Source: Conidiobolus incongruus B7586
Taxonomy: Eukaryota
Direction: 5' to 3'
Length of the DNA stretch: 35,141 nt
Assembly: GCA_000697335.1 (NCBI GenBank)
Contig: JNEM01010881.1
Span: forward strand, 1-35,141
Each line of letters begins with the position of its first letter. Within the stretch, counting starts at the first letter, position 1. The translations under genes were made by a program, and so were the position numbers. A model generated the notes under the pieces. The model was not told the origin of the DNA, searched no databases, and saw only the letters and a program-made list of their open reading frames with translations. Positions 4,976-35,141 of the stretch are shown here, piece after piece.

Positions 4976-5371
4976 TGTAAGCATAATGGTAGTTAAACCA
5001 ATATAATACAAAGGAAGACTTAATATAAAAGTAATGTGGTGCAGAATATGGTAATATAATGTGGTTGTAGTATGCAAGTATAAACAAAGTTTAATTAAGC
5101 TTCAAACTAGGATGAGTCACTGATATATTAAGATTTATATTAGGTAGTGCCAATATACTATAATACTAATAGAAAGTAGTCTTAATTTTAGAAGTAATAT
5201 AAAAGCAAAAAATAATAAGAATTAAGAGGGAAAAAAACTTAGTTTATTAGATAATTCAATGCTATTTATATAATTAATTTAACTATATAAGTATAAATTA
5301 ATTATATAATTTATAGTTAATTGAATTATATTAAAGTATATATAAGAATTTAAAGAATTAGTCTCTTAATA
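4976..5371 (-). repeat. 3' LTR of the Ty3/Gypsy element
   Basis: Starts TGTAAG and ends TTAATA (probably CA>TA). Aligns almost without gaps to 10278-10675. Confidence 0.93.
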
Positions 5372-5390
5372 CTCCCTTAGTAGGTTTCTT
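5372..5390 (-). other. Polypurine tract (PPT) remnant
   Basis: Plus-strand CTCCCTT directly abuts the LTR, reading AAGGGAG just before the 3' LTR on the minus strand. Confidence 0.6.
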
Positions 5391-5419
5391 AAAGAAGACA
5401 CACTCCTTATATTTTTGCA

Positions 5420-8400: not shown

Positions 8401-8900
8401 TTGAAAATAACAAATAAAGTACTATTAGATAAATAATAAACAAATACATATCCCTATAAGTTATTAATACTATTAATTAATTTTTTATATTAATTTTTGT
8501 TTATAATAATAAAATTATTTTCTATAATTGTAGAGTTAGTATTAAATATAATATTTAATAGTTTTATAATAGGATAATATAAATCTTTTAAGATTAGTTC
8601 TATTAATTTCTTTTGGAATATAAAAGAAATAGATTTGTAACCTTCTAGGGTAATATTTATAGATATAAAACTGTGATATTTAAACTAATTTTAACCTTAT
8701 ATAAAATTGTAACTAATGTTACCAACTAAGAATTTAATATATTAAGAGTAATTAGGAGATAATAATAGGTATTTAAATATAGTACCAGATGCTTATTCTA
8801 TTAAGTTATTAGCATATTTAATTATTAAATTACTTTTTTAGGTAGGTAAAAATAGTTTTGTAATAATAAAAAAAGAGATAATATAACTAAAATAACTAAT
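5420..8900 (-). pseudogene. pol: Degenerate pol polyprotein (RT-RNaseH-integrase-chromodomain)
   Basis: Minus-strand translations. RT: ITYLDNILIY (7791-7820, from YLDDILIY) and FNTLLSYYKFTIIDFRLCNT (~7880-7942, from FNTPLGHYEFTVMDFGLCNA). Integrase: TIIFNKDV*FNS (~6260-6295, from ISDRD.QF) and MSTTNYH*TNKLVK (~6174-6212, from STAxHxQTDGxxE). Also RINFTFHISKIKLY (~5643-5684) and chromodomain FYIKWIGYLIEEAI*KPLENI (~5448-5510). Boundaries approximate. Confidence 0.9.
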
Positions 8901-10264
8901 ATTAATTAAAACACTAATAGGTATATCTATAAAAGAAATAATTAATATTTACAATAAAGTGATACTTAAAGGTAAAAAATTATAAGATAAATTAATTACT
9001 AGAATATTTTTAGTTTTTAATAATTTAATTAGTTAGATTTTCCTACTATATATAATTTAATTTGTAAAATTATTAGTCTATTAGAATTTTTGTGGATTAG
9101 ATTAAAACTTGCTAATTAATTATAAGAGGAGTGATTTTAAGGTTATATTAATATTATCCAGGTTTGATTTATGATTAATAAGATTATTGAGAATTAAGTA
9201 GATGTTATTTCCTTAAAGGATATTTATCAACTTTATAGATAACTTAAGTTTTTTAACAATAGTAGTAAATTTTATTTGTTTTTAAGTAAGTTTTAACTTC
9301 TTACTAAAGGTTTTCTTATAAAGTTTTAAAATAAAAGCATCTATTATTTAAAACTTAAATAGGTTAGAATAAGTTTTAACAGATTAATTCTTAAGGTAAA
9401 AAGATTCAATTATAGAATAAAAGATATCATCAATTTAATTGCTATATCACAAATATTAAAAAAACATATTATTAAAGTATTCTCTATTAACTAATTAAAA
9501 CTTCACTTAAAGATTAAAGCATTGTAATAGTTTGTAGATTTATTCTTCTTCAGTGATATTTAATATATTTAACTATATCTCATTAAATTTTTTATCAATT
9601 ATTTTGTAGATGTTTTTTATTTAAGTTAAGAAAGCTTTTCTCTTGTTAATTAAACTTAATTATTTGGGTTATACCTCTTTTTAAGGGTTTTTTCAAATTG
9701 TTTAAAAGTTTATATCTTTATAGTAAGTTATCCTCTTAAAGATTTTTTAAAATTAAGCTTGTAATAAGTTAATTACTTAGTATAAGTAAATTTTTCCAAA
9801 AAAGAAATGGTTAATTTAAGGATATTCTTTAAATCTTCATTAAAGATTAAATCAAGATAATTCTTTATTTTTTTAAAATAGTTTTCAAGCTTATAAAAGT
9901 TTTTAAAACTATTATAAATAGTTAATTTATTATTAAAGACATTAAAGAGGTGGTTTAATATATTAACTATAGTGAAATAACTAGTTTGTTGAATTTAAGC
10001 TCTTTAAGACATATTTTTTTCAATTAAAATTATTTAATATAAGTTTCTTGAAGGGTAATAAACTTTTAAAAATTAAAGTCTTGGATTTATTTAGTAATTA
10101 AGCTACTATTATCATTAAAATAATATGAGGGTATCTTTTTTTTAATGGTATTATAGTATATAGTGTTAAATTTAAATAAAATAAATTATAGATAAGATTT
10201 AAAATAATAATAAATAAATTTAATATAGATAGTTATTAATTTCTAATAAGTTTTTAATAATTTT

Positions 10265-10277
10265 CTTACTGTTACTA
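10265..10277 (-). other. Putative primer-binding site (initiator tRNA-Met-like), G>A mutated
   Basis: The minus strand reads TAGTAACAGTAAG immediately after the 5' LTR. Reverting G>A gives TGGTAGCAG.., complementary to a tRNA-iMet 3' end. The ancestral state is inferred. Confidence 0.5.
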
Positions 10278-10675
10278 TATAAGTATAGTGGTAGTTAAAC
10301 TAATATAGTATAGAGGAAGACTTATTATAAAAATAGTGTAGTATAAAACATAGTAATATAATATGATTATAGTGTACAAATATAAACAAAGTTTAATTAA
10401 GCTTCAAATTAAGATAAGTTACTGATATATTAAGATTTATATTAGATAGTGTTAATATACTATAATATTGATAAAAAGTAGTCTTAATCTTAAAAGTAAT
10501 AGAAAAGTAAAAAATAATAAAAATTAAAAGGGAAAAAAGAACTCAGTTTACTAAATAATTCAATGTTATTTATTCAATTAATTTAACTATATAAGTATAA
10601 ATTAATCATATAATTTATAGTTGATTGAATTATATGAAAATATATATAAAAGTTTAAAAAACTAGTTTCTTAATA
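10278..10675 (-). repeat. 5' LTR of the Ty3/Gypsy element
   Basis: Direct repeat of 4976-5371. Starts TATAAG where the other LTR has TGTAAG, and is followed by TSD AAATT. Confidence 0.93.
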
Positions 10676-12079
10676 AAATTAATAGTTTCTTTTATTATTA
10701 ATAACTTTTTTTTATATTTTTAATTAGCTTTTAATACTCAAAAAAAATTTTTTTATTAAAGACTAAAATTTAATGTTTTTATAAATTAATTTAATTTATT
10801 TATAAGAATTTTTTTCCTGTAAGCTATGTTTTTGATTATTTAAAATATTTATAATAATATAGGTTATAATAAAATGAATATATTAGATATAGTAACTATC
10901 TCTAGTTTTTTTATATAAAAAATCTTTTATAGCTTTAACTTTATATTTTCATAATTATTACATAAAATTAATAATATTTTTAATTTATTTTAAGAATATC
11001 ATTTAAAAATTATTTTATTTAAAAAAACAATATATAATTTACTAATAATTAATTTTCCTAGAGGTATTAAATAAAAAAATCATATAATATTATAATCTAT
11101 TATAACAATTAATATTTGCTTATATTAATAATATTTATTCATTGGAATTTATAAAAGGGATTAATTTAACTTAACTTAATATCTTGTTTTATTTTTAATT
11201 AAAGGATTATATAAATAAATTTAAGATTTATTAATTATAAGTATTTATTGTAAAAACTTTTGTTTTTAGTTATAACTTATTAAGTTTAATCTAGCTATAG
11301 CTACTTTAATTTTTTTTTAGGCTTTTATTAAATTATATGAATTCTATTTTATATTTTTATTAATTAAACTAAGTTTAAACTTAAGTATATATAACATGCC
11401 TATATAATTAATATTAAATTGTTTTAATAGTTTTCTAATAAAAATAAAAAGTTATTTTTTAATATATTTTTTTAATTTAATTATAAGTAAAAAAGTAATA
11501 GTAAAAATAAGTTTTTTAAATTTTAGTAAATTTTGAATAATGTCCCTTCTAGCATTAAAATTGCAAATCTAACAATAAATAGTAATTTTAGATAAAGCAT
11601 TATCTCTATAAGCTATTTACAAGTTTCACATAATTTTAAAGGGTTTATGGTTAAGTTTTAAAGATACAAAAATAAAAGCCTTTTGATAATCATTAACTAA
11701 TTTAAACATCATTAAATTTAAGTGTAAATTTTAAAATCAAAATATTTTAATAAAATAATCATTAAAATTGAATATATATTGTTTGAAAATATTTGTTTTC
11801 CTATATATTTTATATACAAAAAATCTATTAAAATATATAATATGTTTGAAAGATCAAAAATTAAAAAATTTGCCATTTCTTAATTTCCATACTAATAATA
11901 TCAAATAAAATTATTAAAATTTAAAAGACTGGTATTAAGTTAAAATATATACATTATTTAATATCTGATTACAAAATGAATACCATGTATATATCTCTAA
12001 TGATCTAAATCAATATGAGGTAAAATCTAATGCTATTTTTAATAATTAATATTGAACTGAAATAAAGTATAAATTAATT

Positions 12080-13877
12080 GTAAAAATTTGGAATAAGATT
12101 TCATCATTGGATATTAAGCTATGATAACTAGCAAGTATCAGAATAAAGTTGTGAAGTCGCTAATAATATCTGATACCACAGCTTGCTCAACTAAGCGTAA
12201 GTTCTTTACCCCTCGAACTTGGAAGTCTTTGTCTAGAACGGTCATAGGACCATCTTTCTTGTCAATTTTCAATCTGCAACCTAGGTATTTAGAGAAATTA
12301 TTATCTACATTGACATCATCTAAATCTTGATCAAACTGAATTTGTGAACTTTGAAAAACCTGTTTAGAGATACTCTTATAAATTTCCAAGTCTTCGTGAG
12401 CTTTCTAGAAGACAAGTAACACTATTCTAATATATTTTTCAGCTTCATCACTTTCTTAATAACGGAAATTGATGTATGGAACATCTCTTGGGTCATTAGA
12501 TTTCAAGGTGGCAGTTCCGTTTTTAAGACCGCTGTAAGGATTCAATAAGACATTGAAATAGGCTTATGTGCATCTGCAGAAATTCTTGTCGTCATTTCTG
12601 AGCATACAGTAAATCTTGATAGGACACCATAAAACTCAATATTGGTGTATTTCAAATTAGATTTTGATTTTAAAGTGACAGCATGAAGCGGTCCACCATG
12701 TGCATAGGCACCAGTTCCGTTTTTGTATTGTTGCCAACAGATATCATTGTCAGCTGTAGTATAGAAACAGTTTTCTAAAACGGCCCAATCAGAATTTAAT
12801 TCATATGTCAATGCAACTTCTATATGATCTCGGAGATTCTTTCCAACTTCAGGAAGATGGACTTGAGGTTGAATTCCCATTGCTTGTAATTCTTTGGAGT
12901 CACCAATACCACTCAACATCATAATTTGTGGGGTATTGAATGCACCAGCACTGACTACAACCTCTTTACGAGCATATACCTTCTTAATAGTTGGAGATGG
13001 TTTATTTTCGCGTTTTGCAATGGCACTAGCACGATATAAATGCTGTCCACTCATATATTCGACACCCTTAGCAGCTCAATTTTCCAAGATGACTTTAGTA
13101 ACTAATGAATCGGTCCAAACAGTGAGTTTGGAGTTCTTACTTGCCTCAGCTTTTATATGTTTTCTAACGTCTCGTCTAACAGTGGGCTTTTCATTGAAAT
13201 CGATATTTGTTGTATTATAATATGGATCAGTTTCATTATTGTCTAAGATTCTCACTGCTACCTAATTATTCTTGGTAATTTTTCTTTTATCTTTATCTAT
13301 AACTATTATAATTACTTCTGTAACATATTTGTCTTTCTTATCCTCTTTATCTAAGCCAAAAATTTATTGGTAGTCAAAGATAAAAATTGTCTATTCATTG
13401 CAAGATATTAGGTACTTTTCCTTCAAATTTGGTTGATTCAAAATAGTTTCTAAAAGTTGCTTGGTGCTAACTTGGATGGCCAGTTATATTGATCAGTCCC
13501 TGAAAATCACGAGTTTTTGGATACACATATACCATACCATTTTGATTAGTACATCCACTGAGAGCAGAAGCTCTTGGGCACAGAATGTTCTGCCTCTTAT
13601 TCCTAGATCGATGGAAGTAATCCACCTAGAAGTCCCAAGCAATGGATTCATCATCACAATTTCTAATAAATAACACGAGAGTGGTAGTATTCATATTGAG
13701 CGAATTTGATCCCGCTTCTATTAGCAATGTAGAAAATCCATGTTTAGCCAATTCGGTTGCTACCATAGAACCTTCAAGTCCAAATCCGATTACAACATAA
13801 TTCATTATTTCATCCTCATATTTTTCCAAGCCAATAACGAGAGTTAAATAAAATGTAAAAATTGCCTGTTAAGTATA
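12080..13877 (-). pseudogene. Secreted-type GMC oxidoreductase pseudogene, copy 2
   Basis: Fragmented ORFs 13626-13829 (YVVIGFGLEGSMVATELAKHGFSTLLIEAG, GxGxxG-like), 12542-13054 ([35 protein letters not shown]) and 12138-12389 (VLDKDFQVRGVKNLRLV). An upstream hydrophobic stretch AIFTFYLTLVIG resembles a signal peptide. Broken by frameshifts and stops. Confidence 0.92.
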
Positions 13878-16607: not shown

Positions 16608-17558
16608 ATGGAATTGCTTGAAGACGATTTGCAATTAATTAATTATATTTTTAATTCCATTATTTTGTTATTTGCCTTACTAATTCTTATATTCAATGCG
16701 ATATTAATATATATACTGATCAAAAAGTGTGATTTTAATAATACAGAAATAAAGTTAATTTGTATTTTTGGAGTGATTGAATTATTGGTAGGTACTGAAT
16801 TACTGGTAATGTCAGTTGCAAAACTAATTTATGGGTACCATTGGTTCGATGCAGATAAAATACAATGCCGATTTTATGCATTCGCACAACAGTGGCTCAA
16901 TCGTGTCGAAATTGCAACTGTGCTTGTGCTCGCGTTTTTGAGATATTTAATCGTGTGCCATAGAATTGAAAAGAGTTTGGTCTTTTGGATTTGTATGATA
17001 ATAGTTTGTATAATCCCTTGCACTGTAGTATTCACGTATGGCGCAATAATAAAAGATGCAAACCCCAGTGTTTCGTACTTACAGTGTAATACATTCACTA
17101 ATCCTGGAAATCTAAGTTATACCATGACTATCATAATCCCATTTCTATACATTATCCCTTGCTGGATTATCACTATGTGCTACTTTGCTATTGGAAATAA
17201 TGCCAATAACCACCTCAACAAGATGAAGGAAGAAGCAAAAATTAATGGAGACGAAAATTTATTAAAAATCATTAGACAACAGAAGATTAAATTGGTCATC
17301 CAGTTAACTCTTGTGTTCATAATTTATAATGTAAACTTTATGCTCTCATATGTTACTTTCATAATGAAATTTGCTTTTGGTTATAAAAGGACACCTATCG
17401 TTGATGCTCTGGTGCTTATTTCGATATATAGCACCTTTGGGATTAATTCGGTTATTACTATCATGTTTCAACCAGATGTGAATAATGAATTTTTAATCCT
17501 TATGGTAAGGTATCAGGCTAAATTTAAATCTTTTATTAGAAATTTTTATAGACGATAA
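16608..17558 (+). CDS. Seven-transmembrane class-A (rhodopsin-like) G-protein-coupled receptor-like protein, 316 aa, intronless
   Basis: Intact ATG-to-TAA ORF with about seven hydrophobic segments. It has Asn in TM1 (IFNAIL), Cys at the top of TM3 (IQCRF) and in ECL2 (SYLQC), a DRY-position LAFLRYLIVC, TM5 IPCWIITMCY and TM7 INSVITIMFQP. Confidence 0.85.
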   Translation: MELLEDDLQLINYIFNSIILLFALLILIFNAILIYILIKKCDFNNTEIKLICIFGVIELLVGTELLVMSVAKLIYGYHWFDADKIQCRFYAFAQQWLNRVEIATVLVLAFLRYLIVCHRIEKSLVFWICMIIVCIIPCTVVFTYGAIIKDANPSVSYLQCNTFTNPGNLSYTMTIIIPFLYIIPCWIITMCYFAIGNNANNHLNKMKEEAKINGDENLLKIIRQQKIKLVIQLTLVFIIYNVNFMLSYVTFIMKFAFGYKRTPIVDALVLISIYSTFGINSVITIMFQPDVNNEFLILMVRYQAKFKSFIRNFYRR

Positions 17559-17845: not shown

Positions 17846-18640
17846 GTGATAATAGAATATTAATTTATACAACTACATACACTATAATATAAGATTGATT
17901 ATGAATCAAAAAAATAAATTTAATTGAAATAAAAAACAACATCCAATGGCTTATTATATTGGATAAAATAACATTTCTTACTGGTATAAAATAAAAGTAT
18001 ATGAAATCAAATTATAGGGCTTTTTTGCAATAGAATAAGAAAGTTTGGATTGAGAAGCATTATATTAATAAATATTTCAGTAAATCTTTGCAATATTAAA
18101 TCACTCAAATTTTCCTTTTTTTATTATATAGTATTACTATTAAAATTATTCTTAATGAGCATAAAATTAGTTAATTAATATTTTTTAATAAGTATGAAAA
18201 AATACTTGGTATATAATTTATTATTATTGTCATGGTATGATGAATAATAATGAAAAAAAGATTGATATTAAGAATCAATAGTATATTTTATCAATTAAAA
18301 TAAAAATAACCCAATAAAAATATATTAAATATAATATTTTTCAAATTTATAATTCAATTGAAAAAGTATATATTGAATTTTAATTAAAAATGTCTCTCCA
18401 AAAACATAAATTAATTTATTTAAAATTATAAATTAAGAATTTTATAAAGTCCATATATTATATTGCTATTTGAGAAAATATGATTGAAAATGCATAAATC
18501 TTGATTTAAATCATAGGTAAAATTTGACTTAATTTTTAGTGGTAGTTGAATTTCCTTTCTCAAATTAGTTAAAAATTGTTTTGCAAAATCCAATCTATCA
18601 TTATAATAAATGAAATTTTATAATTTAATAAAATTTGAAA

Positions 18641-19380
18641 ATGCTTTTGGAATAAGAAATGAAACCTATTTAAATTATTTTTATAGAGTTTCCTGATATA
18701 TTTGAAACTTTAAGATCATGTCAATAAATCCAGCCTTAAAATATCACTCGTTGTTGCTGAATTATCTAGGTTATAATTAGAAACAATCCGTGATTTGAGT
18801 TTTTATGCTAATAAATGAAAAGTATTCCTTAATGAGTTTTCAATGGGCCAAGTTCCAGTATTTGAAGTTTCTGAGAACTTTAATTTAACCAAGAGTGCTG
18901 ACATTGTATTCTAATATAAAAACATAGATTTATTTCGATACCTTTAATTCACAAGAAAGTAGTTGCATTATCTAATAAGAATATACTTTTACTTGGACTA
19001 GATCCAAATGAGTTTTCCAAAATTTAGTGATTGATGTTTTAGGTAAATCACCCCCATAAAAACCCTAATTGATATTTTTTTACCTATATTCAGAGGTGAA
19101 TTGATCAGCGAATATAGAACAAAGAGCCTAGGTGCTACCTACATCGTAACTAGGGCTATTTAAATCAATATATAGATCATTGTACCTACCATGTTAGCGA
19201 TGACCTCTCTTTTTCTGACATCAACCTCTTTTGTAACTTTATATTTCTATTTTCTCATTTTATGCCTAATGATCTTTAGACAAAATTTTGACATTTGGCT
19301 AGTTGGTTTGAAGATTTGAAGCTTCCAATAATGTATTCTTTAAGTGTCACTCAATCCTTTAAGGACACATTTCAGTTATT
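18641..19380 (+). pseudogene. GST (EF1B-gamma-like) pseudogene 1
   Basis: Homologous to 26073-26813: exon-1 remnant ATGCTTTTGGA-ATAAG (18641), SLVVAELS, GQVPVFEVSENFNLTKSADI (~18846-18905) and LSFSDINLFCN (~19205). Multiple stops and indels. Confidence 0.8.
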
Positions 19381-22300
19381 TTTTTATTACTACAAGTGAC
19401 TTAATTCATTGTAATTAAAAAGATATCCATCTGAAATTCAATTGTTTATATGCTATAATTTACAAAAGAATTATTGTATTCAAAGCACCCTGCTTTGATT
19501 AGGACTGTAAAAGGTGATTGAACGGTCCTCTATATTCCTCTAAACATTTTAATATTTATGATCCACTCCACTCACATTATAAATTTAATTCCAATAACAA
19601 TTTTTAAATTCAACATACCTCAAATACGGTATATTTTACAAACACATTCTAATTCACTGAAATCAGTTTCAGAATTCGCTATTATTAGCTAGACAGAATA
19701 CAAGTATATTTTTCGATGATAATTTTATTTCATTATTTTCTATTTTTATATTAATAATATTTTCAATATAATATCATACTAAACTAAAACTTTTAATTAA
19801 TTTTTAATTAGTATTGTTCCATTTATGTATATAATTTTATTCACTCCTTATTTTAGAATTATTATTTCAAAGAATTAAACTTTCCTTTGTATTTTACGTA
19901 ACAATAATTTTTTTGAAAACAAATTTAAAATAAAATTTTTTTATTATATAATTTAGAAAAATAGATACTTATATAAATTTAATACTCTCCATAATTAAAA
20001 ATAATTTTTGATATATTTTTAGCAAACTTCTAATACCTAATCTATAGTTCTCTTTATCAAAGACTGAAATTTGATGTTTCACAGGTTAATTAAATTTTGT
20101 AAAAATCTTTATTCTTATAACCATATTTTTATCTGTTTTGAGGAATTAAAATTATGTGTGTTTCAATCCATTGAATCTATTTAATATATTAGCTTTTTTC
20201 AATTATTTTTTATTAGAGAGTATTATTATTACTTTAGTGATATATATTTTATAATTATTAATGAAAATAATAAGTATATTTAAATTAAATTAAAAACATA
20301 AATTTAAAGTAATTGTATTAATTGTAATTCTTTTAAAAATAAGAAAATAGTACAATATAAGATAATAATTATTTAGAATGAATACTATTTGCTTAAAAGG
20401 TTTTTTTAAGAGAGCCTTATATAAATATTATATTTATGAAATTATGCTCTTCTATTTAGAATTCATAGCCTAACAAATATGGTTGTCACTATTGTTCCTA
20501 ATCTATCTTTTCAGTAGGTTTTGGTGACAGGTCATTGTAATTGTAAGATGATGCATTGGGAATCTTAGTTAAGACTCCTGTTAATTGGTTAAAACTTCCC
20601 ATTTGATATTAGCAAAAAATACAAAAATATTTATTTTATAGTAATATTAATTTAAATATAAATTAATTAATCAGATAAAATATAGATAAGTTCTATTAAC
20701 GTCTCTTTATATTCTTTTATTATCAATTATTCAGTATATTTAAATAAATGTGTAAAATAAAAATTTTCAACCTTAATAACAAAGGAAATATCATAAAATA
20801 TATTATTTAATAAGTATAATACTATAAAATATTAACTTTTTATTATTATGATAATTTTCAAATTATTTTGTAGTGATAAATATTCAAAATTAACCATTCA
20901 CTTTGTTATTTAATTCGGGAAAAAAATTGTTTTATAAATATCCTGTTATGATAGTCATACTAATTGTTCATATTTGGAAGGATATTATTTTATATTATAT
21001 AATCTCATAAGTAGATTAGCCTTATAATATTAATTTATAAGTAATATTGTAAAAATTATTACTATTTCTATTTAAATACTACTATGTATAATAAATAAAA
21101 TCGAGAATATTAATTTAATATAATATGATATACTTGTATGACATCATTTAAGGTCTCTAATTTCATAGCTTAAATATAACTCTAAGATAATTTTTATTAA
21201 ATAAAAATAATTTGGAAAAAAAATTGCAGAAATTTGTTATAAAGTTTTACTTTGATTCTGTAACATAAAAATTATTTGTTAATCTCAAAATAAAGTAAAT
21301 TACTATTTTCTATATAGTAAACACATAATTTGAGAAACTATTTAAAATAATTAGAATGAGCAATTATGCATTATTCTAATGTTATTGTTAAGTGTTAAGT
21401 TTTTTAAACCATAATTGAATTCTCAATTAATTTTAAAAAAAATTCTTTCAACGACCAGATTCATTTATATTGTATTTATTTGCTAATAATAGCAACTATA
21501 AGAATGATATTTTAAAAAATTAGAATATTTCATTAACAAAATTTGAATATAAAACTATTTTAGTAATTACCCTATTTTATTTTAATTTTTTATTTTAATA
21601 TTGAATAGCTAAATATAGTAAATTTAATTTAGAACATCTTTACTATAAAATAGAGAAATGTCATTTAATATAACTATCTAAAATATATTACTTCATTGTA
21701 TTTAATCTAAATATTTTTATTATATTTTATGATATATATCCACATTATTAATATTGTATTATGTCTAAGGTTGTGGTATAAACATCAATCAAACTTTATC
21801 CAATATTTTAGCACAATTGAGTTATTTTAATAATTTTAATTGGTGATTAGTATCCTAATCAAAAGGTTTATTATATGATAATGTTAGATTAGAAAAATAA
21901 ATTGCTTTTAATGATGCTGTACATTATATTCACATTTATTACTTGTATTAAAATCAAATTATTAAACATTTATTTTGAAAATTGCGCTTTAAATAGTTTG
22001 CATTAATGATTATAATTGATAATTTGGTTTAAGTTATGAAAATACACAGTTTAAAACGCCAAATAAACTGGGTACTAATAAAAAGTTGGTGTAATCTTAT
22101 TAAATACTTAAGATATAAATCATAATACGAGATATATATACTCTAGTTTAATATTTTCAGAATAACCAAAATAGTTAATTTTGCATATCATAAAAAATAT
22201 CAAAATTTCATTAAATTTAAAATTTGAAAGAAAATTACTTGAATTAAAATAGATCTGAGGTAGTAAATTATCTAATTACAAATCCATTTTTAATAATCAG

Positions 22301-22540
22301 GAAAATTGGGGAACAATAATTGATTACTAATATCTTAGGATTAAATTCAAATGCCATAATTACTCTGAAAACTCAGAAATTTAGCCGATTTACTAAATAT
22401 TTCTATCAGTTTGTATAATGGCATCAATATACATTCCTTGATATTTGTAATAGAGATATGTTTTAATGCTAAAATATTTGTTCAAACACTAGTAATAATA
22501 TTTAGTAATCAGGATAATAATTTGATAAGCTAACAAAGTT

Positions 22541-23288
22541 ATGTTTTGATTAATATCTTTTGGAATAAATTTAAAAACGTCAATTTAATAATCATATAAT
22601 TAATTTCTTAATTAGAAACTTTATAATCCTGTTTCAAACCCTTAGGATCAAAAATCACTTTTTATTGCAAAATTGAGTGGGGTTGAATTATGGACCACTC
22701 CAGATTTCAAATTTGTTCTTTTAACCAAGGAAGAATATTTGAGAAAATTTTCAATAGATCAGAATCCTTATTTCGAAGGCAAAGATGGAAGAATCTCATC
22801 TGAAAGTGCGGCAATTGCATTCCTTAGTCGGTTTACTGATTTATTAATCACATATTTTACTCAAGTTTAGTTATTAGTCGCTTAATCCAAAGAGAATACC
22901 ACCCTTCTTGAACGTGATTTAAATGAACTTTCCAAATTCTGGCAAGTTATACTTTGCACTGAGCCAGTTTGATGGAACCATTCATTGATCTTTTAAGTCC
23001 CAGATACACTGGTAAGCTTCTAAGTGTGGATGGTGAAAAAAGCTTGTATGATTATATTCATCCTGATTTTGTGTACTTGAATAATTACATTGGCAAGCTT
23101 ACTTATTTTGTTGGAGTCGACTCTCCCTTGCTGATATTAATCTCTCGTGCAACTTGATCCTGCATTTTTTCATATTATTATAGACGAGTTCAAGACCAAA
23201 TATTCCAATATGACTAAATATTCTGAGATTACTACAGATACCCGAACTTAAAATGATTATTGGACATGTTTCATTCAAAAGATGTATA
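22541..23288 (+). pseudogene. GST (EF1B-gamma-like) pseudogene 2
   Basis: After acceptor TTAG it reads KLYNPVSNP*DQKSLFIAKLSGVELWTTPDFK..SSESAAIAF. Intron-2 remnant at ~22830-22870, then LMEPFIDLLSPRY..YLNNYIGKLTYFVG. Premature stop at ~22643 and later frameshifts. Confidence 0.88.
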
Positions 23289-26072
23289 ATTAATCTATCT
23301 GATAATAAATATTATTGAGGGAGTATTTTAACTCCTTGTTCTAAGAACTTGTGATATTCTAGATAATCCACTTTATAAGCTACTGTTTGATGAGTTTGAA
23401 ATATTTAAACCATCTGACTTTCTAAATAAGCTAGGTCCTCTATTTTTATTAACTTTACTCTTTCTTTATCATTTACCTATCATTTTAGCTCTTTTACCTA
23501 ATACTTTCTATCCTTTTACAGGATTCCTCCTAATAAGGCAAGTTTAAACCCCAATATTATATTAAACAAAATCAATGGATCATTTTGATTATTTTCTGTA
23601 TATTTGTTAAAATATTTATTATAATTATAAATTTAAACATATTATGGTTTAGAAAAAAATATAACAAATTAATATTAATATATTAAGCCATGTGTTAGTT
23701 TGATTACAAAATTCCCTTTATTAAAACCCCAACCTTTAAAAATTCAATTAGGCAATATTTTTATTATTATATTTCAAGTTTTATTATATAGGTTTGGTTA
23801 ATTAGTTAGTTATTATTTTTTGGGTTTGATTTAAAATTAATGAATTTATTATTTTATTACTAGTAATGACTGAAAATAATTCATTTTAATTTATTATATA
23901 TTTTAATATTTAAGCTTAAAAATATGTTGCTGAGATTTATTTTAAAAAAAAGAAAGTTATAAATACTAATAAATTATATAGAATATACATAATCTTTTTT
24001 CAATAATATTTAAAAAAAATATTGCCAAACTTCAAAATTAACAATATGTTAACATATATATACTTATATTTAAGGGAATTTATCTAAATAATTTATCATT
24101 ATTTTGAATATATTATTAATATAAATACTATAAATTATTCTATTAATTTTTTAAAAGGTAAAAAATATTAATAATAGAAATTTCCTGCAATTATTAATAT
24201 TGAATTCAGTTAATATTTTGATAAATTCTTAATTAAATTATTTATTTTATTTACTTATTCTTATTTTTATATTGTTATATTATTTATTTAATAAAATTAT
24301 GGATTATTAAATTAAATTTAATTTTTTTATAATCTTATGAAAAATTCATCATTAAATGAGTCAATAATGATTATATATATTTTAACAAATTACTAAGGTT
24401 TGGATACTAATATCACTATATTATTTAGTTACATTTCCATAATTCAAATATTTAAGATTAATTTCAATTAATAGAGGATTTTAAATATAATTTGATTAAA
24501 AAATATTTTCTATTTTAAAGATAAAATTCATTTATATATAATGATAAATAGCAGAAAGAAATTAACCAATAATGGTTCAAAAAATTATTATTATAATATA
24601 TTCAATTTAATATAAGTTATTGAATTATATTTATAACTAGATCCTTTGTATTTGAATATTATATATAATGGCTTTATTTCATAATTTAAATTACTCAAAA
24701 GACTTTAAATATTATTACAAAATATCAATATTTATAATTAAAAGAGAAATTAAGATATAAAGGAAAATATATAATATTTGATATTTATAATAAAAGTTAA
24801 TATATTATAGTAAAGCTTTCTTTTTATTAAAGCTATAAATTAAAAATATTTATAGTTTTTTTTATTATAATATTATTGATAAAAAATTTACTTATATAAA
24901 AACTAAGATTTTTAATTATTAATTAAACATAATACCAATGAAAACATCATTGAATATAATGACTATTAATTATTATATTCTATTATATGGAATTATAACT
25001 TATTTTATCTAATTATTTTTATATTATTAGTTATTTAGAATATTAATAATTTCTATTATCTAGTGTTTTATTTAAAGTTTTCTAAGAATTATTATGAATA
25101 TTATATAAAAAACTTAAAGCTCTATTTAATTAAATATCATTGATTATATCTATATATAATTTAATTATTTATTTTGTTTGCTTATAAATATATGATTATT
25201 TAGATTAATTCTTAATTAATATAGCTAAGAAGTGATTATAATAAAATAATAACCTTGAAAATTTCTTACTTTGATAATTTAAATTAAATTTATTAAAATT
25301 TAAGAAATTATCTATTATTTGATTTTATACTATATTTTTAATAAATTAATAATATATCAAATAAAATCTAATTATATTAAAATTCTTAACTAAAATATTA
25401 CCAGAATATTTTCAATTTTTATTTATAATTTTTATTTCTGTAAAATTTTTTAATTTATAAAATATCAAATTATAATATCTAACTTTAAAAGAATAAATTG
25501 TATTATATGATATTTAAAAAATGAATATTTTTGATTATTAATCTACATAAATTATTATATGTCATTATTTATTTAAAACTATGAAAATTTCTTTGAACAT
25601 GGAATTTGAATTCAAATTATATTATTTGTCATAACCAGATTTGGAAATTAGAATTTGAATAAAACTTAAATTTAGTCATTATTAATTTAATTTGAGATTA
25701 ATTGGGATTTCAAATTTAAATCTTTAATTTTGTTATGTCTTAACTAAATATTACGAATATATCCTTGTTGACCTTATATTCAAAAAATGTATTAACCTTT
25801 AATATAGTTAAGTTTGATTTGATACTAAATCACAACTTTCAATATCAATATAAATATTCTTGATTACTAATATATGCTTTCTCATGTTTGTATTACAGCT
25901 TGAAATTTTGATAATTTTTTCATATTGAGTGGATTATGATCAATGATTTAGGAAATCCGAATTTGAATTTATAATAGGGGATAATTTTCGATGCGAGGTT
26001 GTGTATATAAATAAATTTGAATGACATAAATGAATAAATGAATAGATCTATAAAATTATTAAAATTAAAATC

Positions 26073-26813
26073 ATGACTTTTGGAGTAAGTATAAATATAA
26101 TTTGAATATGTTGTCAAATAATTAATTATATTTCAGAAACTTTACGGTCCTATTACTAACCCTCGTGTTCAAAAAGCTCTCCTTGTCGCTGAATTCAATG
26201 GTATTGAACTTGAGACCACTCCTGGATTTAAAATTGGTGTCGATACTCGTGCTCCTGAATATATTGAAAAGTTCCCTTTAGGCCAATCTCCTGGTCTTGA
26301 AACTTCTGATGGCCTTTTCCTCAGTGAAAGTGCTGCTATTGCTTTTCATCGTAAGTGAATTTTTATTAATTTTATAATTTTTATTAATAATTTGTATTAG
26401 TTGCTCAGTCTAAGAGCGATACCACTCTTCTTGGTCAAAATCCAAATGATCTTGCTAAAATCTGGCAACTTATACTTTTCGCTGAATCCAGTTTGGTGAA
26501 TCCTGTAATTAGTCTTTTGAAGCCTAGATGGCTTGGTCAAGTTCTTCCTGAAGATCAACAAAAGAAATACTATGAAGCTTTGGACCGTTACTTGACTTAT
26601 TTGGATAACTTTATTGGAGATAAATCTTACTTAGTTGGTGATCGTGTTTCTCTTGCTGATATCAACCTTATCTGCAATTTAAAGTTAATCTTCGAAAACC
26701 TCATGACAGATGAATTGAAGTCCAAGTATGCTAACTTGACCAAATATTTTTATGAAATTTTGAAACTGCCTCAATTTAGCAAAATTATTGGTCAGGTCTC
26801 TTATCAAGGGTAG
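26073..26813 (+). CDS. Glutathione S-transferase, stand-alone EF1B-gamma-type GST domain, 212 aa; exons 26073-26084, 26137-26350, 26401-26813
   Basis: Splicing out two GTAAGT..AG introns (52 and 50 nt) gives an uninterrupted 639-nt ORF: MTFGKLYGPITNPRVQKALLVAEFNGIEL..KFPLGQSPGLETSDGLFLSESAAIAFHLAQ..LLG..YLVGDRVSLADINL..VSYQG*. The cis-Pro loop, SESAAI motif and SLADI N-cap are present. Confidence 0.93.
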
Positions 26814-28197
26814 TTAAATAAATGATAGGAAAATAATAAAGAATGTAATTATCCCAAAATGATATGACATATTCTAATTCATATTAATTAAAAACTTGAT
26901 GATTGTAAAAGAATAAAAAATTTCACTATATTGTTATTGAAAATAATTCAAATAGTCAAAAAAATACAATATTTGAAATTTTATCATAAAATTACAAAAT
27001 TCAGATTATTATTAAATACTTATTAGCTAGCACCCAAGTAATAATCATTCTTTGATCTACTTTAAACTTATATTGTATTCGATAATTATCTTCATTAGAT
27101 ATAAAGCAAATATATTGAACACTATATTAAAGCAGTTTTTGATAATTTCTTAAAATCAGCGTTACTAAGTAAGTTGTATCTATTTTTTAACACATTATTG
27201 ATTTCAATTCAATCAAATATATTAAAATTGATACTGAGAGAATTAATCGTAGTTTTCTTGAATTATAATTGTAATATATATATATTCTTTATAAAACTGA
27301 ATGCTATAGTTATAAATATTAACCGGATAGATTGTATAATTAAATATCATATTTTAAAACTATTAAATCAAAAAAATTTACCTTATACTACAATTTAGTC
27401 GATTTCAAAAAAAGGTAATCTTATTCCAATATCATTCATCTATAATATTCCAGTTCCTGAATTCTTGAAACATAAATATATATTCAACAATTTAAGGTAA
27501 TATAAATATTAAAAAAATCAGTATTAATATTCATCAATTAATAAAAATTTATATTGGATAAATTTATTTGATAAAAACAATTTTTTAAACATAATAACAG
27601 CGTTTTTTGAATTTTGAATTATTAATTTTAAAAATAATCAACAATACATTGAAAAAAATATGTTTTATTCAGATTATAAAACAGAATCAAATTAATGTAA
27701 ATGATATTAAGATATCATATATAAAATATTGAATATTGACTTCATCCTAATCCTCTTTAAATTGATATAATTATGTATAAAATCGTCATCGTTTTAAATT
27801 CAGTTAATTTCTATTTTTTTGTCCTTTTTCAATTTACAAAATTATGTAGTATACAAATTAATTGATTTATAATATAATATAATTAATTCATCAACTTCGT
27901 AATCGAAAGGATAAAACATTTAGATTTAACGGAAATATTGCCCCATTTTGCACCATTAGTTAAATTAATTCATTATTTATTAATTGCATTAATTGATAAT
28001 ATTGATTGATTTTAATATTATACTTAAAAATAATTACAAAATAATTAATTTGCTTTTGTAACAAATTTGCATATGTGAAATTTCGATTTTACAAAGTTGA
28101 CTGGAGGGAAATAGGTGGCATAACTGATATATATATATGTGTCGCAGTCTAAAATAATCGATATAAAATTTGCATTTGAAATATAAAGAAATCAAGA

Positions 28198-28924
28198 TTG
28201 TTTTTTGGAGCAAGTTTGAATTATTATCCATATATATAAATTCATTAAAACTGGAAAGTTATATGGGCCTACTTAAGCAAATACTCGTGTAGTTAAAACT
28301 TTGATTGCAGCTTGAATTAATGGCCTTTAACTAGATACTATTGGATTTCAAGTTCTTGTTGATAATAGAGAGCGCGAGTTTGCTAGAAAAAATATCACCT
28401 AGATAAATCTACTGGTCTCGAGACTTCTGATGGTCTGTTACTTACCATAAGTGCTGTTATCCTTTACCACGGTGAGACTTAATACTCCAATTTGGATTCA
28501 CTTTGGTCTATTTGCGAGTGGTAAACCTGACGCAATCTTACTTGGAAAGAATATAAACCAATTCTCCCAAATTCTTCAGTCCTTCCTCTCTAGTGAGTTT
28601 AGCTTAATTGATCCCATCCTTGACCTTTTCCTTCCTTAATTTTTAAATCCTAATAACCATGAAGCAATTAAATGAGGATTTAAATAACAAAACAATAAGA
28701 ATTTGGAATAATTTAACCAGGTTTTGGAAGGCAAACAGTACTTGGTCGGAAACACCGTGACTATTGCAGATATCAATACACTTTGCAAATTGACTCCTGA
28801 ATTTATTAAAGTTTACGCTGCCCAGACTTAACAAAGATATCCCAATGTTTTTTCATACTATGAACTCTTGGATAAATTGCTCTAGTTTGCAAGGTATATA
28901 TGCCAAATTCCATATAGTGAATAG
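28198..28924 (+). pseudogene. GST (EF1B-gamma-like) pseudogene 3
   Basis: Exon-1 remnant TTGTTTTTTGGA-GCAAGT, then KLYGPT*ANTRVVKTLIAA*INGL*LDT, GLETSDGLLLTISAVI and YLVGNTVTIADIN. Several stops and frameshifts. Confidence 0.87.
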
Positions 28925-29288
28925 ACTATTGAACTGCTGATTTGGCTATATATTCGCTGCCTCAATGATTAATTTGTAGGCTTTTTTTATAAAATATTAT
29001 ATTGAAAAAATAATAAAGCTATTTTTTAATATATTATATTGTGAATTTAATACCTTAATAAATTCAATTTAATATAAGAAAAAATATTTGTAATTGGTGA
29101 TAATTGAAAGACAAAGTTTTTTGTCTTTGGTATTTATACTATAGTTAATATACTTAAGTGTTAATTTTGTTGAAGGATTATGCTGGATAGATGATATATA
29201 TTTTAATTGGTTAAATTCACCTTAATCTTTTCACCAAACTTTTTTTCTCATTTGTATTAAATTTTAAAAACTTGATTTTACAATATTA

Positions 29289-30599
29289 TTAGTGTAGAAA
29301 TTAAGTAATAGCACAATTTTAAAATTAAAATTAAACAAATAAATTAATAAATAATATATAAAAATTAATGAATAATATAAAATTAATAGCCTTTTTTATT
29401 ATTAACAACTCTTTTCTATACTTTTAATAAGCTTCTAATACTTAAACAATTCTTTTTATTAAGGATTGAAATTTGATGTTTCATGAACCAATTTAATTTG
29501 TTTGCAGGAATTTTTTTTCTTGTAAGCTGTTTTTTTAATTGTCTAAAATAATTATAATTATATAGGTTATAATCAAGTGAATATATTAGATATAGTAACT
29601 CCCTCTATTTTTATTATATAAAAAACCTTTTATAACTAGCTTTATATATTTTGCAATTATTATATAAAATAATAAGTGTCTTTAATTTTTATTGAGAACA
29701 CCATTTAAAAATTATTTTATTTAAAAAAATAATATATAATTTACTATTAATTAATTTTCCTTAAGGTATTAAATAAGAAAACTTTATACTATTATAATTT
29801 ATTATAAAAATTAACATTTGCTTATATTTAAAGTATTTATTCATTAGAATTTATAAAGTAGATTAATTTAACTTAACCTAACATTTTGTTTTATTTTTAA
29901 GTAAAAGATTATATAAAAAAGTTTAAGATTTATTAATTGTAAGTATTTATTGTAAAAACCTTTGTTTTTAGCTATACCTTAATAAGTTTTGTTTAGTTAT
30001 AGCTACTTTAGTTTCCTTTTAGGCTTTTGTTAAATTATAAGGTATCTATTTTATGTTTTTATTAATTAATTTAAGTTTAAATTTAAGTAAATATAATATG
30101 CTTATATAATTAATATTGAATTAATTTAATAGCTCTCTAATAGAAAATAAAGGGTATTTATTAATATATTTTTTTATTTTATTAATAAATAAAAAAATAA
30201 TAATAGAAATTAATTTTTTAGATTTTAATAAATTTTGAATAATATCCCTTCTAGCTTTAAAATCACAAATCTAGCAATATATGGTAGTTTTAAATAAAGC
30301 ACCATTTTTATAAGCTATTTGCAAGTTTTAAATTATTTTAGATGGTTTATGGTTAAGTTTTAAAGATACAAAAATGAAAGCCTTTTGATAATCACAATCT
30401 AGTTTAAACATGATTAAATTTAAACGCAAATTTTAAAATCAAAATATTTTATTAAAAAAATAATTAAAATTGAATATATATATAATTTGAAAATACTCAT
30501 TTTCATATATATTTTATATACATAAAATCTTTCAAAATGTATAATATGTTTGAAAGATCAGAAATATAAAAATTTGCTATATTTTAATTTCTATACTAA
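29289..30599 (+). mobile_element. ~1.3-kb non-autonomous TIR element, copy B (uninterrupted)
   Basis: TIRs TTAGTGTAGAAATTAAGTAATAGCA / TGCTATATTTTAATTTCTATACTAA flanked by TA. Colinear with copy A and carries a single AAATT (~29370) at the Gypsy insertion point. Confidence 0.87.
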
Positions 30600-31961
30600 T
30601 AATAATTGATTCAATATGGTTAATATTTATGGAAAACAAAGTTTTTCTTGAAAAAAATAATATTCATCATTAATTCATAGGTAATATTATTGATTTTTAT
30701 ATATTCTTTTGTTCTTGATTAAAATTATCCTGGTATATAAATATAAAAAACCATTATCAAATATATCAGTCCTTTCCAATTAAATATAATTAATATTTAT
30801 TCTTTTTGGTATGGGAAAAGAATATTTTTCAATTTTATAAACTATTTTAATATATTTTAAAATATATGTTAGATAGCTTTGCAATTAAATTTTAATAGCA
30901 TATTTATAGTTTGAATTAAAAAAATTATTAATTAATAATTTTATATTAACTAGCTATTAAAAAAATAACTTATATTTCTTTCAAAATATTTTATTAAAAA
31001 ATAAATAGAAATAATAACCTTTGAAAACTATAAATCTTACTAATAAATAATTATTAATGATTTATTATAATATATATTATCACGGATAAACTGATAGATA
31101 ATAGCTTATAGAATTAAATATATCATTTTTATTTCCTATATATAAAACATTTATAAAACAAAAATAATCCAAAATCAAATGATGCTTTTTTAATAATTAT
31201 ATATTGTCAAGTGAATACAATGCAAAAAAAACTTAAATTAAAAATAGGATAATAAATTTTATTTATGAGTAAGTATTTTTAAACTTTAAATATATTAGTT
31301 AATATAAATATATCAGGCTATATACTAATTGCTATAATATAAATATAATACTAATTACAGTTGTTTTAAGACTTAAATAACAAAAATAAATAATAATAAA
31401 CAAAGAAAAATAATGGTAAATAAAGAAAAATAATAAAAATTAAGAGAAAGAAATAAAAACAATAATTTTTAATTAAATTAATATGAATTATAAAATTTAA
31501 TTAACTTATTACCATAGAATTAAAAATTTGGGAAAATTTTTAATTTCTGATTTTTTCAATATATTATTAATTTCAAATAAAAAAAATAAACAAAACAGAT
31601 AGGAAAAAAAATAATATGGTATTATATATATAACACATTTGTTAAACAAATTTAACTTTTTAAAATTTACTGTTAAATTTAAAATTAAATTATATTATAA
31701 TCATCAGATGTTTTTTATTTTAATATTTTTAAAACTTAATTATAAACCCTCTAAATTTATTTAAAATATATAAACAGCTTTTAGTAATAGAGCATTATCT
31801 AAATCAAAAATATATCATTTGGTAAATCAATTTATAATTTAAGAAAGATATTACTATAGAGTCAAAAACATAGGAAATTTTTTAATATCTGATTTTTCAA
31901 ATATATTATTAGTTTCAAATAAAAAAAATATACAAAATAAATTAGAAAAAAATAGCTTTGA

Positions 31962-31964
<3 letters not shown>

Positions 31965-31992
<28 letters not shown>
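31965..31992. repeat. (AT)14 microsatellite inside TIR element copy C
   Basis: Read directly. The equivalent site in the other copies has a shorter AT run. Confidence 0.9.
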
Positions 31993-31995
<3 letters not shown>

Positions 31996-33237
31996 ATAAT
32001 TTTTTTGATTAATAAATTAATTTTTTGAAATTGGTTGTTTAATTTAATTATACTTAAATCAAATAATAACTATCAAAAGTTTTTTATTTCAGTATCAATA
32101 AAGCTTAACCATAAACCCTCTAAAATCATTTAAAATTTACAAGTAGCTTTTGATAATAAAGTATTATTTAAATTAACAATTTATTTCTAAATAAATTTCT
32201 TTAAAGTTAAAAGAGAAATTACCTAAAACCTATCAAAATTTAAAACACAGATTTCAATTATTATTGTTCTAATTATTAATAAAATTAAAAAATATATCAA
32301 AAAGTATCTTTTTATTTCAGTAAAAGAATTATCAAGATATTTTAATAATAGTTATATACTAACCTGCAAAAGTAAGTTATAAAATCAAATATATATATAT
32401 TTTAATTAATAACTAAAACAATTGTATATATTAATTTACTTGAAATTATAATATATAATTAAGGTATATTATTTGATTATAAATAAATATATTTAAATAT
32501 ATTTAGTAAACTATTAGCAAAAATATTAACCCTTAATATTTAACTAAGGTGAGTTATAAATTTGCAGGTTTTTGAGATAAGGGGATATATTTAACAATAT
32601 ATAACCATATCTTTTTTCTCTCTTTGTTATTATTTATATAATATTTTACAAATATACTAAATTCTTTTTATTAGTATTATTATACCTAAATCCCTCTCTA
32701 AAAAAACCTATTTGCATATTAATTAACTTTATGAAAAAGATAAATCAACTTATGATATTGCTAGAATTACTAGTGTTAACTAGTTTACTATAGTTAAAGC
32801 TATTAAGAATAGCAATAAAAACATATTTAAACTTAAACTTAAGTGTGTTAAAATTATAAATGAATATAATGAGAAGTATATCTATAGGTTGGTTAATACA
32901 AGTAAATATAGTATTGCTATAGAAATATAACAGGAATTATAAAACTATACAAGAATATTAGTTAACATTGATACTATTATATATGTTTTATATTAGCTTA
33001 GATACCACTTACACCTTAAGAAAAAACACCCCCAACTAAAAAAATCCTACTATAAAGCTAGGTAAGAGTTTAAATATTGCTATTAATGTTGAATTGAAAC
33101 TAATTAGAATAAGGTTATTTAGTCTAATGAAACAAAAATATACCTTAGTGAATCTAATAAAAAAGCTAGATACTTTAGAAAAAATACAAAACTACTTTAT
33201 AACCATCATGTTAATTTTACCCAAAAGTATAATAATG

Positions 33238-33585
33238 TGTATTATCCTAGTGCTGGAAACTAGGATAATTGTATTGAATTAAGTTGGAATGTGGATAAGT
33301 TATAGGATTAAGATGTAGTTATATAGAGTTTTATTGGAAGTTCTTGACAAAGACTTGGAGTTAGTTTCCTTCAGATAGATAGATAGATAGATAGTTGGAT
33401 AGATGGATGAATGAATAGATAGATGACTAGATGAATGAATAGATAGATAGATCCCTGTTGTATTTCTCCTTTTGATATTAGGATAAGAATAGATCAATTT
33501 AAGGGAAAGTAGAATAAGAGATAAATTATGGGTAAACTGATATTAAAGGTAAATATATATGGACTAATTGGGTAGATATGTGACA
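33238..33585. mobile_element. Solo LTR (348 bp) inserted in the Tc1 transposase
   Basis: TGT..ACA termini and 5-bp TSD TAATG (33233-37, 33586-90). Removing it restores the transposase frame at the KHGGGS-like motif. Confidence 0.88.
33373..33452. repeat. Imperfect (TAGA/TGGA/TGAA)n tetranucleotide microsatellite within the solo LTR
   Basis: AGATAGATAGATAGATAGTTGGATAGATGGATGAATGAATAGATAG.. read directly. Confidence 0.85.
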
Positions 33586-35141
33586 TAATGGGTTAATTAT
33601 TATTTAAAGATATATATTGTTTTTAGGTGTAAGATATCTTTATAAAATTAATAGGGGAATTAATGTTAAAATATACTAAAGTATTCTAAACAATAAATTG
33701 AAAAAAACTATTGAATAATATAGGTTAAACAAATCTAATGTTATTTTCCAGTAAGATAATACCTCTTGCTATATTATAACTTCTACTATCAAATAACTTA
33801 AAAATAACAAGATAACAGTTATAAAGTAGTTTTTTTAATCTCCTAACCTTAACCTAATTAAATACCTTTAGGATTAGTTAAAAAAAGCTATTAAAGCTTT
33901 CCCCCCAGCAAAAAATTTAGATCAACTTTAAAAATATATTCAAGAAGTATAGAACAAGATTAACCCTTCTTAGTATAAGAAGTTAGTTGATTTTATACCT
34001 CATAAACTTAAAGAAGTTAGAAAAGTTAAAGATAGATACACTAAGTTTTAATTTTTTTTTATCACCAAAAACCTACAAATTTATAACTCACTTTAGGTAA
34101 AATTTAAGTATTTATATTTTAACCAATTAATAACTAAATATCATTATATAATAATATATATTATTAATAAATATAATAGATTTTAATTATTTAAATTTAT
34201 TTCATTAAATATTAATTAAGTTATTAGTAAAAATATAAGTGTTTTTGATTTTATAACTTATTTTTACAGGTTAGTATATAAGTATTTTATATATATTAAA
34301 GTTTAAATTAAAATTAATTAATAAAAATAAAAAATATATATCTTATAATTTAACTAAAGCTTAAAAAAAGCTATAGTAGCTATTGCTAAATAAATTTTAC
34401 TAAAGTATAGCTAAAAACCAAGGTTTATATAGTAAATTATTATAATTGATGAATTCTAGGTGCTTTTGTATTATCTTTTACTTAAATATAAATCAATGTG
34501 TTAGATTAAGCTAAATCAACCCTTTTCACAAATTTCTTTACTAAACCCTTTGTTGATAAATAAATATTAATTATTATAATCGATTATAATAATATATGTT
34601 ATTTTTATTTAGTTCTTAAAGGAAAATTAATTAATAGTAAACTTTATATATCTTTTTTAAATAAAATTATTTTAAATTAGTATTTTTGATATAATTTAAG
34701 AAAACCTATAATTTTATATAATAATTGCAAAGTATTTAAATTTAAAGATATAAAAAATTTTCTAATTAAAAATAATAGAAAAAACTACCATATCTAATAT
34801 ATTCCTTAGATTATAACCTATATGATTATAATTATTTTAGGTAATTAAAAAACTAGCTTATAAGAAAGAAAATTTCTATAGGATAATTTAATTGATTTGT
34901 GAAATATTAAATTTCAGTCTTTAATAAAAAGTATTATTTTTTAAATATTAGATCTTTACCAAAAATATAGCAAAAAGTTATTTAAAATAAAAGAAACTAT
35001 TAATTTTATATTATATATTTATTTTTACCGTTTATATATTAAAATGTTTATTTTTTCAAATTTAAAAAATTCCCATTATTTAAATTACAAAGCAATATAA
35101 TTTAAAACCTATTAAAATTCAAAAGACTAATTTTAATTATC

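Follow-up and report, generated by a model that had tools for sequence, protein, structure and literature searches.

The analyzed window, a 35,141-nt stretch of DNA with a G+C content of about 20%, includes a Tc1/mariner DNA transposon of the DD34E type (nucleotides 32357 to 34276, + strand, ends approximate), which was delimited by its inverted arms, its TA flanks, and contigs that join 32352 directly to 34280. The left terminal inverted repeat, of about 220 nt (32357 to 32574, + strand), matches the right one at 74%, and the latter (34066 to 34276, − strand) was located by comparison of the inverted arms. The transposase gene is split by an insertion into an N-terminal part (32682 to 33237, + strand), whose start codon reads ATA and which includes 10 in-frame stop codons, and a C-terminal part (33586 to 34051, + strand) with 12 in-frame stops and a stop at 34049; the relic has 22 in-frame stops in total and neither part has a frameshift. 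The codon of the first catalytic Asp (33126) reads AAT, the second Asp (33755) is intact, and the Glu codon (33860) reads AAA, the spacing computed from the last two positions being 34 residues. Subtraction of the 353-nt insertion from the 1370 nt between 32682 and 34051 leaves 1017 nt, that is, 338 codons plus a stop, and both halves align without gaps (185 and 151 residues) to the intact 338-amino acid transposase P0011, the best of the 836 protein matches obtained with the C-terminal part at E ≤0.001. The coordinates, the single reading frame, and the length of 1017 nt given in an earlier note on this DNA agree with these results. The Pfam domains DDE_3 and HTH_Tnp_Tc3_2 score above the cut-off in P0011 and below it in the relic. 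The element shows these features of the Tc1 group of the IS630-Tc1-mariner superfamily: HTH and DDE regions, DD34E spacing, inverted repeats, and a TA target duplication. When the N-terminal read-through was searched against longer proteins, none of 180 candidates passed, and a degenerate nucleotide motif representing the Tc1 family matched neither metagenome nor viral contigs. An alternative genetic code was rejected, as all three kinds of stop codon are present, at Trp, Gln, and Arg columns.

The insertion that splits the transposase gene is a 348-nt solo LTR (TG...CA, 33238 to 33585) flanked by the 5-nt target duplication TAATG (33233-33237 and 33586-33590). Other copies of the Tc1 family pass exactly from 33231 to 33585, skipping 353 nt (five letters fit both sides), which corresponds to the LTR plus one copy of the target duplication. 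The LTR contains an AGAT/GAAT microsatellite (33373-33452), and other family members skip from 33282 to 33470 or from 33339 to 33515. It is less mutated than the surrounding Tc1, with a G+C content of 30% and a TpA/ApT ratio of 0.94.

A full-length Ty3/Gypsy retrotransposon with the same mutation signature is found at nucleotides 4976 to 10675 (− strand), with LTRs at 4976-5371 and 10278-10675 and the target duplication AAATT. It has matches to reverse transcriptase, RNase H, and integrase, all below the Pfam cut-off. The end of its pol read-through (5500-5600, − strand) resembles what we take to be a chromodomain, and Pfam gave no chromodomain match in that segment. Both transposons are inserted in copies of repeat R, which is AT-rich, unclassified, and about 1.35 kb long; the window has three full copies of it and one partial copy (19882-20319). 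Copy a (10676 to 11900, continuing at 4849-4961 across Gypsy, + strand), identified by repeat comparison, shows by its composition the signature in its left part and none in its right part; copy b (29257 to 30604, + strand) is an empty site for the Gypsy and Tc1 insertions; and copy c (31849 to 35122, − strand) is interrupted by Tc1, which has TA on both flanks. Pairs of repeat R copies differ with transition/transversion (Ti/Tv) ratios of 0.9-1.9, a weak transition excess or none. No transition excess was found either between the two Tc1 terminal inverted repeats (16 transitions and 34 transversions in an alignment that is poor in its middle), and there was little in the tandem duplication that closes copy c, whose units are offset by 342 nt (31483-32222; 38 transitions and 32 transversions, about 1.2).

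The window also includes a cluster of four paralogous GST genes (18629 to 28934, + strand), one apparently intact (26060-26823) and three frameshifted (18629-19368, 22540-23295, and 28189-28934), as well as two GMC oxidoreductase paralogs about 31% identical (1850-3750, + strand, and 12072-13868, − strand), the first of which is frameshifted. A GPCR gene at 16608-17555 had 8 matches, and the three that carry species names are from Conidiobolus coronatus NRRL 28638 (49-69% identity); the GST had a single match (40%), which clusters with a C. coronatus GST. The encoded GPCR and GST proteins differ from those of C. coronatus NRRL 28638. These two fast-evolving markers indicate that the host is likely a Conidiobolus or a close relative (Entomophthorales), in line with the entomophthoralean-like fungus proposed from gene content in the earlier note, and with C. 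coronatus as the source of the nearest named proteins an ascomycete host was rejected.

The transition departures previously described for the transposase motif codons were found at the expected places. Conserved columns were scored with 45 homologs of 325-350 amino acids taken from the 150 listed matches to the C-terminal part: among 63 columns conserved in at least 70%, 28 are unchanged in the relic, 29 differ by C>T or G>A only, none by the reverse transitions only, and 6 otherwise. At the DNA level the changes were polarized with the best 4 of 72 loci, which have intact frames, are 48-52% identical to the relic, and have a G+C content of 46-57%. Where the four relatives share a C or G, 120 of 211 positions read T or A in the relic, while at shared A or T positions only 1 of 184 reads C or G by transition (Fisher's exact test, P = 2e-41). 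The four relatives agree at 395 positions in all, and 12 of these show transversions. Most of the 395 are first or second codon positions, and the relatives are distant; as an internal control, 96% of the A and T at comparable positions are preserved. The changes comprise 45 C>T and 75 G>A, which by eye are interleaved along the ORF without strand patches, although repeated rounds of mutation would wipe out any such patches. Thus 57% of the conserved C and G were lost with no indel across 336 aligned codons.

Variation within the Tc1 family was followed by aligning on the element the assembled contigs of four runs (X1-X4), all from one sample that is counted once and is possibly the source of the window. 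In X1, 26,667 contig pieces were placed on Tc1, mostly 90-95% alike. Transitions account for 469 of the 509 variable places in X1 (the other 40 being transversions), 457 of 492 in X2, 456 of 489 in X3, and 475 of 515 in X4; none of the 12 indels listed (of 13) lies within the coding parts. In a short stretch (the central 45 of 105 bases) all 13 listed sites are transitions. The family clearly includes many divergent copies, contig depth not being taken as copy number.

Gene duplicates and non-coding DNA in the same window do not share this spectrum. Compared with the apparently intact GST gene, the three frameshifted copies (about 750 nt) have Ti/Tv values of 122/189, 117/154, and 122/157 (0.65-0.78), changes of C/G>T/A versus the reverse of 68/54, 64/53, and 52/70, with no directional bias, and 6, 10, and 10 CpG sites versus 11. 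The duplicates are old (58-64% identical). The GMC duplicate also lacks the signature. Overall, the Ti:Tv ratio is about 12 to 1 in the transposons and below 1 in the pseudogenes. CpG is absent from the 7620 nt of transposon DNA (G+C 18.5%), where the observed/expected (O/E) ratio of CpA is 0.67; non-coding DNA of similar G+C content (12,527 nt, 17.3%) has 43 CpG and the pseudogenes (4143 nt) have 53, both with a CpA O/E of 1.10. The host DNA outside repeats is CpG-poor too (O/E about 0.5), and at the host's own level 8.4 CpG would be expected in Tc1 and 23.5 in the 5700 nt of Gypsy, where none was observed. A CG deficiency in 'lower fungi' was reportedly described by Clutterbuck in 2017. The composite RIP index, calculated in this one window, is positive over the transposons only. 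As a separate observation, GATC (18 versus 40.0 expected) and GTAC (4 versus 16.3) are depleted even in non-coding DNA outside recognized repeats.

The 120 polarized changes in Tc1 fall at CpA in 65 cases, at CpG in 10, and at CpC or CpT in 45, with some CpG sites whose partner was also lost being counted as CpA. By 3′ base, the losses are 10 of 12 at CpG, 65 of 82 at CpA, 27 of 62 at CpT, and 18 of 49 at CpC. No CpG is left in Tc1, and about 80% of the CpA sites and 40% of the CpC and CpT sites are lost (65/82 versus 45/111, P = 8e-8), so that for the polarized sites these counts establish the order CpG > CpA > CpT ~ CpC. The prior description of the changes as mostly at CpA/TpG is correct only in part: the context is broader, and the complete absence of CpG from the element had not been noted. 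Confinement of the mutations to CpG was not what we found, 110 of the 120 being classed as non-CpG; CpG-only decay was rejected on the 45 changes at CpC and CpT and on the CpA O/E of 0.63-0.68 in Tc1 and the Gypsy interior. In the Gypsy LTR pair 21 of 32 CpA sites vary, versus 27 of 63 others. Two Tc1 relatives from other samples (L017:369-1376 and L072:898-1233) have 4 CpG versus 30.2 expected and 4 versus 15.4, respectively; their CpA/TpG is normal or raised, which is ordinary decay of methylated CpG and contrasts with the Tc1 relic.

A scan of eight offsets revealed an extra deficit of C with a G two or three bases upstream. With expectations from dinucleotide-preserving shuffles, GNC and GNNC number 1 versus 14.5 and 2 versus 14.6 in Tc1, 26 versus 41.9 and 19 versus 41.6 in Gypsy, and 8 versus 14.3 and 5 versus 11.6 in R-left; CNG is also low in Gypsy (19 versus 33.4). 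Genes and pseudogenes are close to expectation, and in non-coding DNA GNC is normal (97 versus 94.5) and GNNC low (66 versus 94.4). The odds ratio for an upstream G is 0.08 in Tc1, across coding and non-coding parts and all codon phases, and 0.42-0.47 in Gypsy; in the Gypsy LTRs it reaches 0.8-0.9, the solo LTR shows no significant effect, and the deficit is absent from the 15 full-length Tc1 relatives examined. At the substitution level, 43 of 62 cytosines with an upstream G were lost versus 77 of 143 without (P = 0.045), and within CpC and CpT 18 of 31 versus 27 of 80 (P = 0.03). Differences between copy pairs showed no effect at −2 (16/32 versus 162/319), with P = 0.08 at −3. This apparent upstream-G effect, strong in composition and modest in substitutions, is a lead whose mechanism is unproven.

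The nesting of the elements gives an order of events. TAATG stands on both sides of the solo LTR, and a family copy without the LTR reads GG in place of AA; since both copies of the target duplication carry AA, Tc1 was most likely mutated first and the solo LTR inserted later. The LTR in turn reads A at 33289 and 33311, where 73-93% of the depth shows G, which suggests that it was hit after its insertion. LTRs of one element are identical at insertion, and retrotransposon integration needs an LTR ending in CA. Comparison of the two Gypsy LTRs (396 and 398 nt) gives 49 transitions, which affect about half of the C/G-bearing sites, 4 transversions (1%), and 2 one-base indels, and both LTRs end in TA instead of the expected CA. 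Thus the mutation of Gypsy came after its insertion; there too C>T and G>A are interleaved. Taken together, these orders indicate that mutation has acted more than once on this locus. One signature is shared by a class I (Gypsy) and a class II (Tc1) element. Read from the sequence, the comparisons demonstrate that the C>T changes run one way, are restricted to repeats of the transposon type, arose independently in different copies, and followed insertion. The repeat-confined one-way process that had been proposed is borne out by the 120/211 versus 1/184 polarization and by the unbiased pseudogenes.

The reading that we favor, with a probability of roughly one half, is that a methylation-linked, transposon-directed, enzyme-assisted C-to-T process has run repeatedly on both strands of these transposons. 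A cytosine methyltransferase, probably of the DNMT1 family, would be recruited to the chromatin of transposons, where the cytosines that it marks would turn into thymine at a rate far above that of ordinary DNA. Targeting would depend on transposon identity, copy number, or heterochromatin and not on simple pairing of any two duplicates, and the conversion may be assisted by an enzyme, like that of the Dim2-dependent mitotic mutator in Zymoseptoria. Deamination of 5-methylcytosine leads to CpG loss; the total loss of CpG points to methylation, and since CpA was lost and not gained, decay at CpG alone is excluded. That linked gene duplicates were spared fits transposon-directed targeting better than pairing of the Neurospora type, although these duplicates are old. 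The process resembles fungal RIP in its outcome and differs from it in sequence preference. A precedent is the mitotic mutator, dependent on a methyltransferase, that converts C to T at CpA (PMC8016269, in its available text). Counting against this reading are the weak or absent transition excess in the terminal inverted repeats, the repeat R pairs, and the tandem duplication, the scarcity of CpG in the host DNA outside repeats, the sparing of CpG by the Zymoseptoria mutator, and the lack of an upstream-G effect in the Gypsy LTRs, in the solo LTR, and at −2 in the copy pairs.

Passive decay differs from this methylation-linked process in that the transposons, densely methylated in all contexts, would lose 5-methylcytosine by spontaneous deamination over long times with no dedicated mutator. 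The context order resembles a methyltransferase preference, the hits on both strands are interleaved without patches, the damage is graded across the nested elements, and the ratio in the LTR pair is high but within reach when set against the rates commonly quoted for mammalian CpG. However, pure CpG decay would raise CpA/TpG, which is depleted here, and passive decay would thus need methylation of nearly all non-CpG cytosines; the heavy loss of conserved C and G with no indel in the transposase argues for a short clock. We consider passive decay possible but rather doubtful, and sequence alone would not separate it from an enzyme-assisted mutator. Far less credit can be given to a mutation bias toward AT that affects unselected DNA throughout the genome, an explanation to which we attach almost no weight: the low G+C content of the window and the under-representation of CpG everywhere would suit it, but pseudogenes and non-coding DNA of matched G+C content keep CpG and CpA, the dinucleotide model changes sign at the left end of Gypsy, and the Ti:Tv ratios of transposons and pseudogenes are far apart. 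Since the GST duplicates lack the bias, AT drift was rejected; pseudogenes and intergenic DNA with the same transition excess, named in the earlier note as grounds for abandoning its interpretation, were not found.

In canonical RIP, duplicated DNA is recognized premeiotically through its homology, and a RID-like enzyme then introduces the mutations. Three linked GST duplicates that decayed by frameshift, unbiased and with CpG kept, and the GMC duplicate that did likewise, speak against this unlikely explanation without deciding the matter, since such old duplicates may predate the system. The changes are nevertheless of the C:G>T:A type only with CpA preferred among non-CpG sites, and the composite index is positive over the transposons only. 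Moreover, C. coronatus has 555 repeats of at least 1 kb at 80-95% identity and none at 95-100% (PMC12543289, available text), and proteins with a RID-like domain layout have been reported in other Entomophthorales, which according to the authors cannot be read as RID homologs (PMC11105155, available text). Editing of transposon intermediates by an APOBEC-like cytidine deaminase would also give C>T only with a 5′ context effect, such as that of G at −2 or −3. It is very improbable: Tc1, which moves by cut and paste, passes through no reverse-transcribed intermediate, the hits are interleaved on the two strands, the LTRs diverged after insertion, and the strongest determinant is the 3′ base.

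A more specific form of the transposon-directed process is tentative and somewhat unlikely: a RID-free, independently evolved repeat mutator of the Entomophthorales might target CpA as well as cytosines with a near cytosine on the opposite strand (CG, CNG, GNC, GNNC) and spare host gene duplicates. If true, such a mutator would silence transposons permanently without the cost of RIP to gene-family growth. The deficit of GNC and GNNC, if upheld, would be a fingerprint for finding the enzyme. As Conidiobolus can be cultured, it is open to tests of whether the process requires sex, homology, or a RID-like enzyme. For a Conidiobolus-like fungus, the locus gives copy-level, polarized, and controlled evidence that C>T mutation is strong and confined to repeats.

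To call the pathway undescribed, as had been suggested, is too strong. RIP in Entomophthorales was already suggested from indices, with major caveats flagged, the index signal being 24.2% in Zoophthora radicans and 5.7% in Entomophaga maimaiga, while the available text gives no value for Conidiobolus (PMC11105155). A kingdom-wide screen found RIP-like signatures unique to ascomycetes and classed C. coronatus as 'no_rip' (PMC12543289, available text). The eight AT tetramers of that screen are enriched 0.84-1.39-fold in the transposons of this window, so an AT-tetramer screen would miss the present signature. No copy-level mutation spectrum for Conidiobolus was found in the available text of the literature, including PMC5751038, PMC11258239, and PMC13297926, nor was a DNMT inventory for Conidiobolus found in the available literature and supplements, including PMC5751038, PMC7862722, and bioRxiv 2023.01.30.526367.

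Among known systems, as far as the cited sources are available, RIP of Neurospora crassa and other Pezizomycotina, including the Aspergillus variant at CpA and CpG (PMC4352252), is alike in its C:G>T:A changes only, its confinement to repeats, its preference for CpA, and the colinear frames full of stops that it leaves. It differs in that the host here is outside Dikarya, about 40% of CpC and CpT are lost, linked gene duplicates are spared, and an upstream G has an effect. The Dim2 mitotic mutator of Zymoseptoria tritici (PMC8016269) shares methyltransferase-linked C>T in transposon regions, from CpA to TpA, and needs no sex; the methyltransferase link would be the counterpart here, but in Z. 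tritici more than 98% of the C>T changes are at CpA and CpG is spared, whereas here CpG is gone and CpC and CpT are hit too. The CpG/TpCpG hypermutation of transposons in Microbotryum and the rusts (PMC4352252) is similar in its complete loss of CpG, probably by methylation followed by deamination, but its signature is restricted to CpG, while most of the polarized changes described here are classed as non-CpG and CpA/TpG is depleted, not gained. The closest case by host is that of the Entomophthorales indices (PMC11105155), from the same order of fungi and also with a composite index positive over repeats; to those dinucleotide indices the present analysis adds copy alignment, a mutation spectrum, its sequence context, and a pseudogene control.
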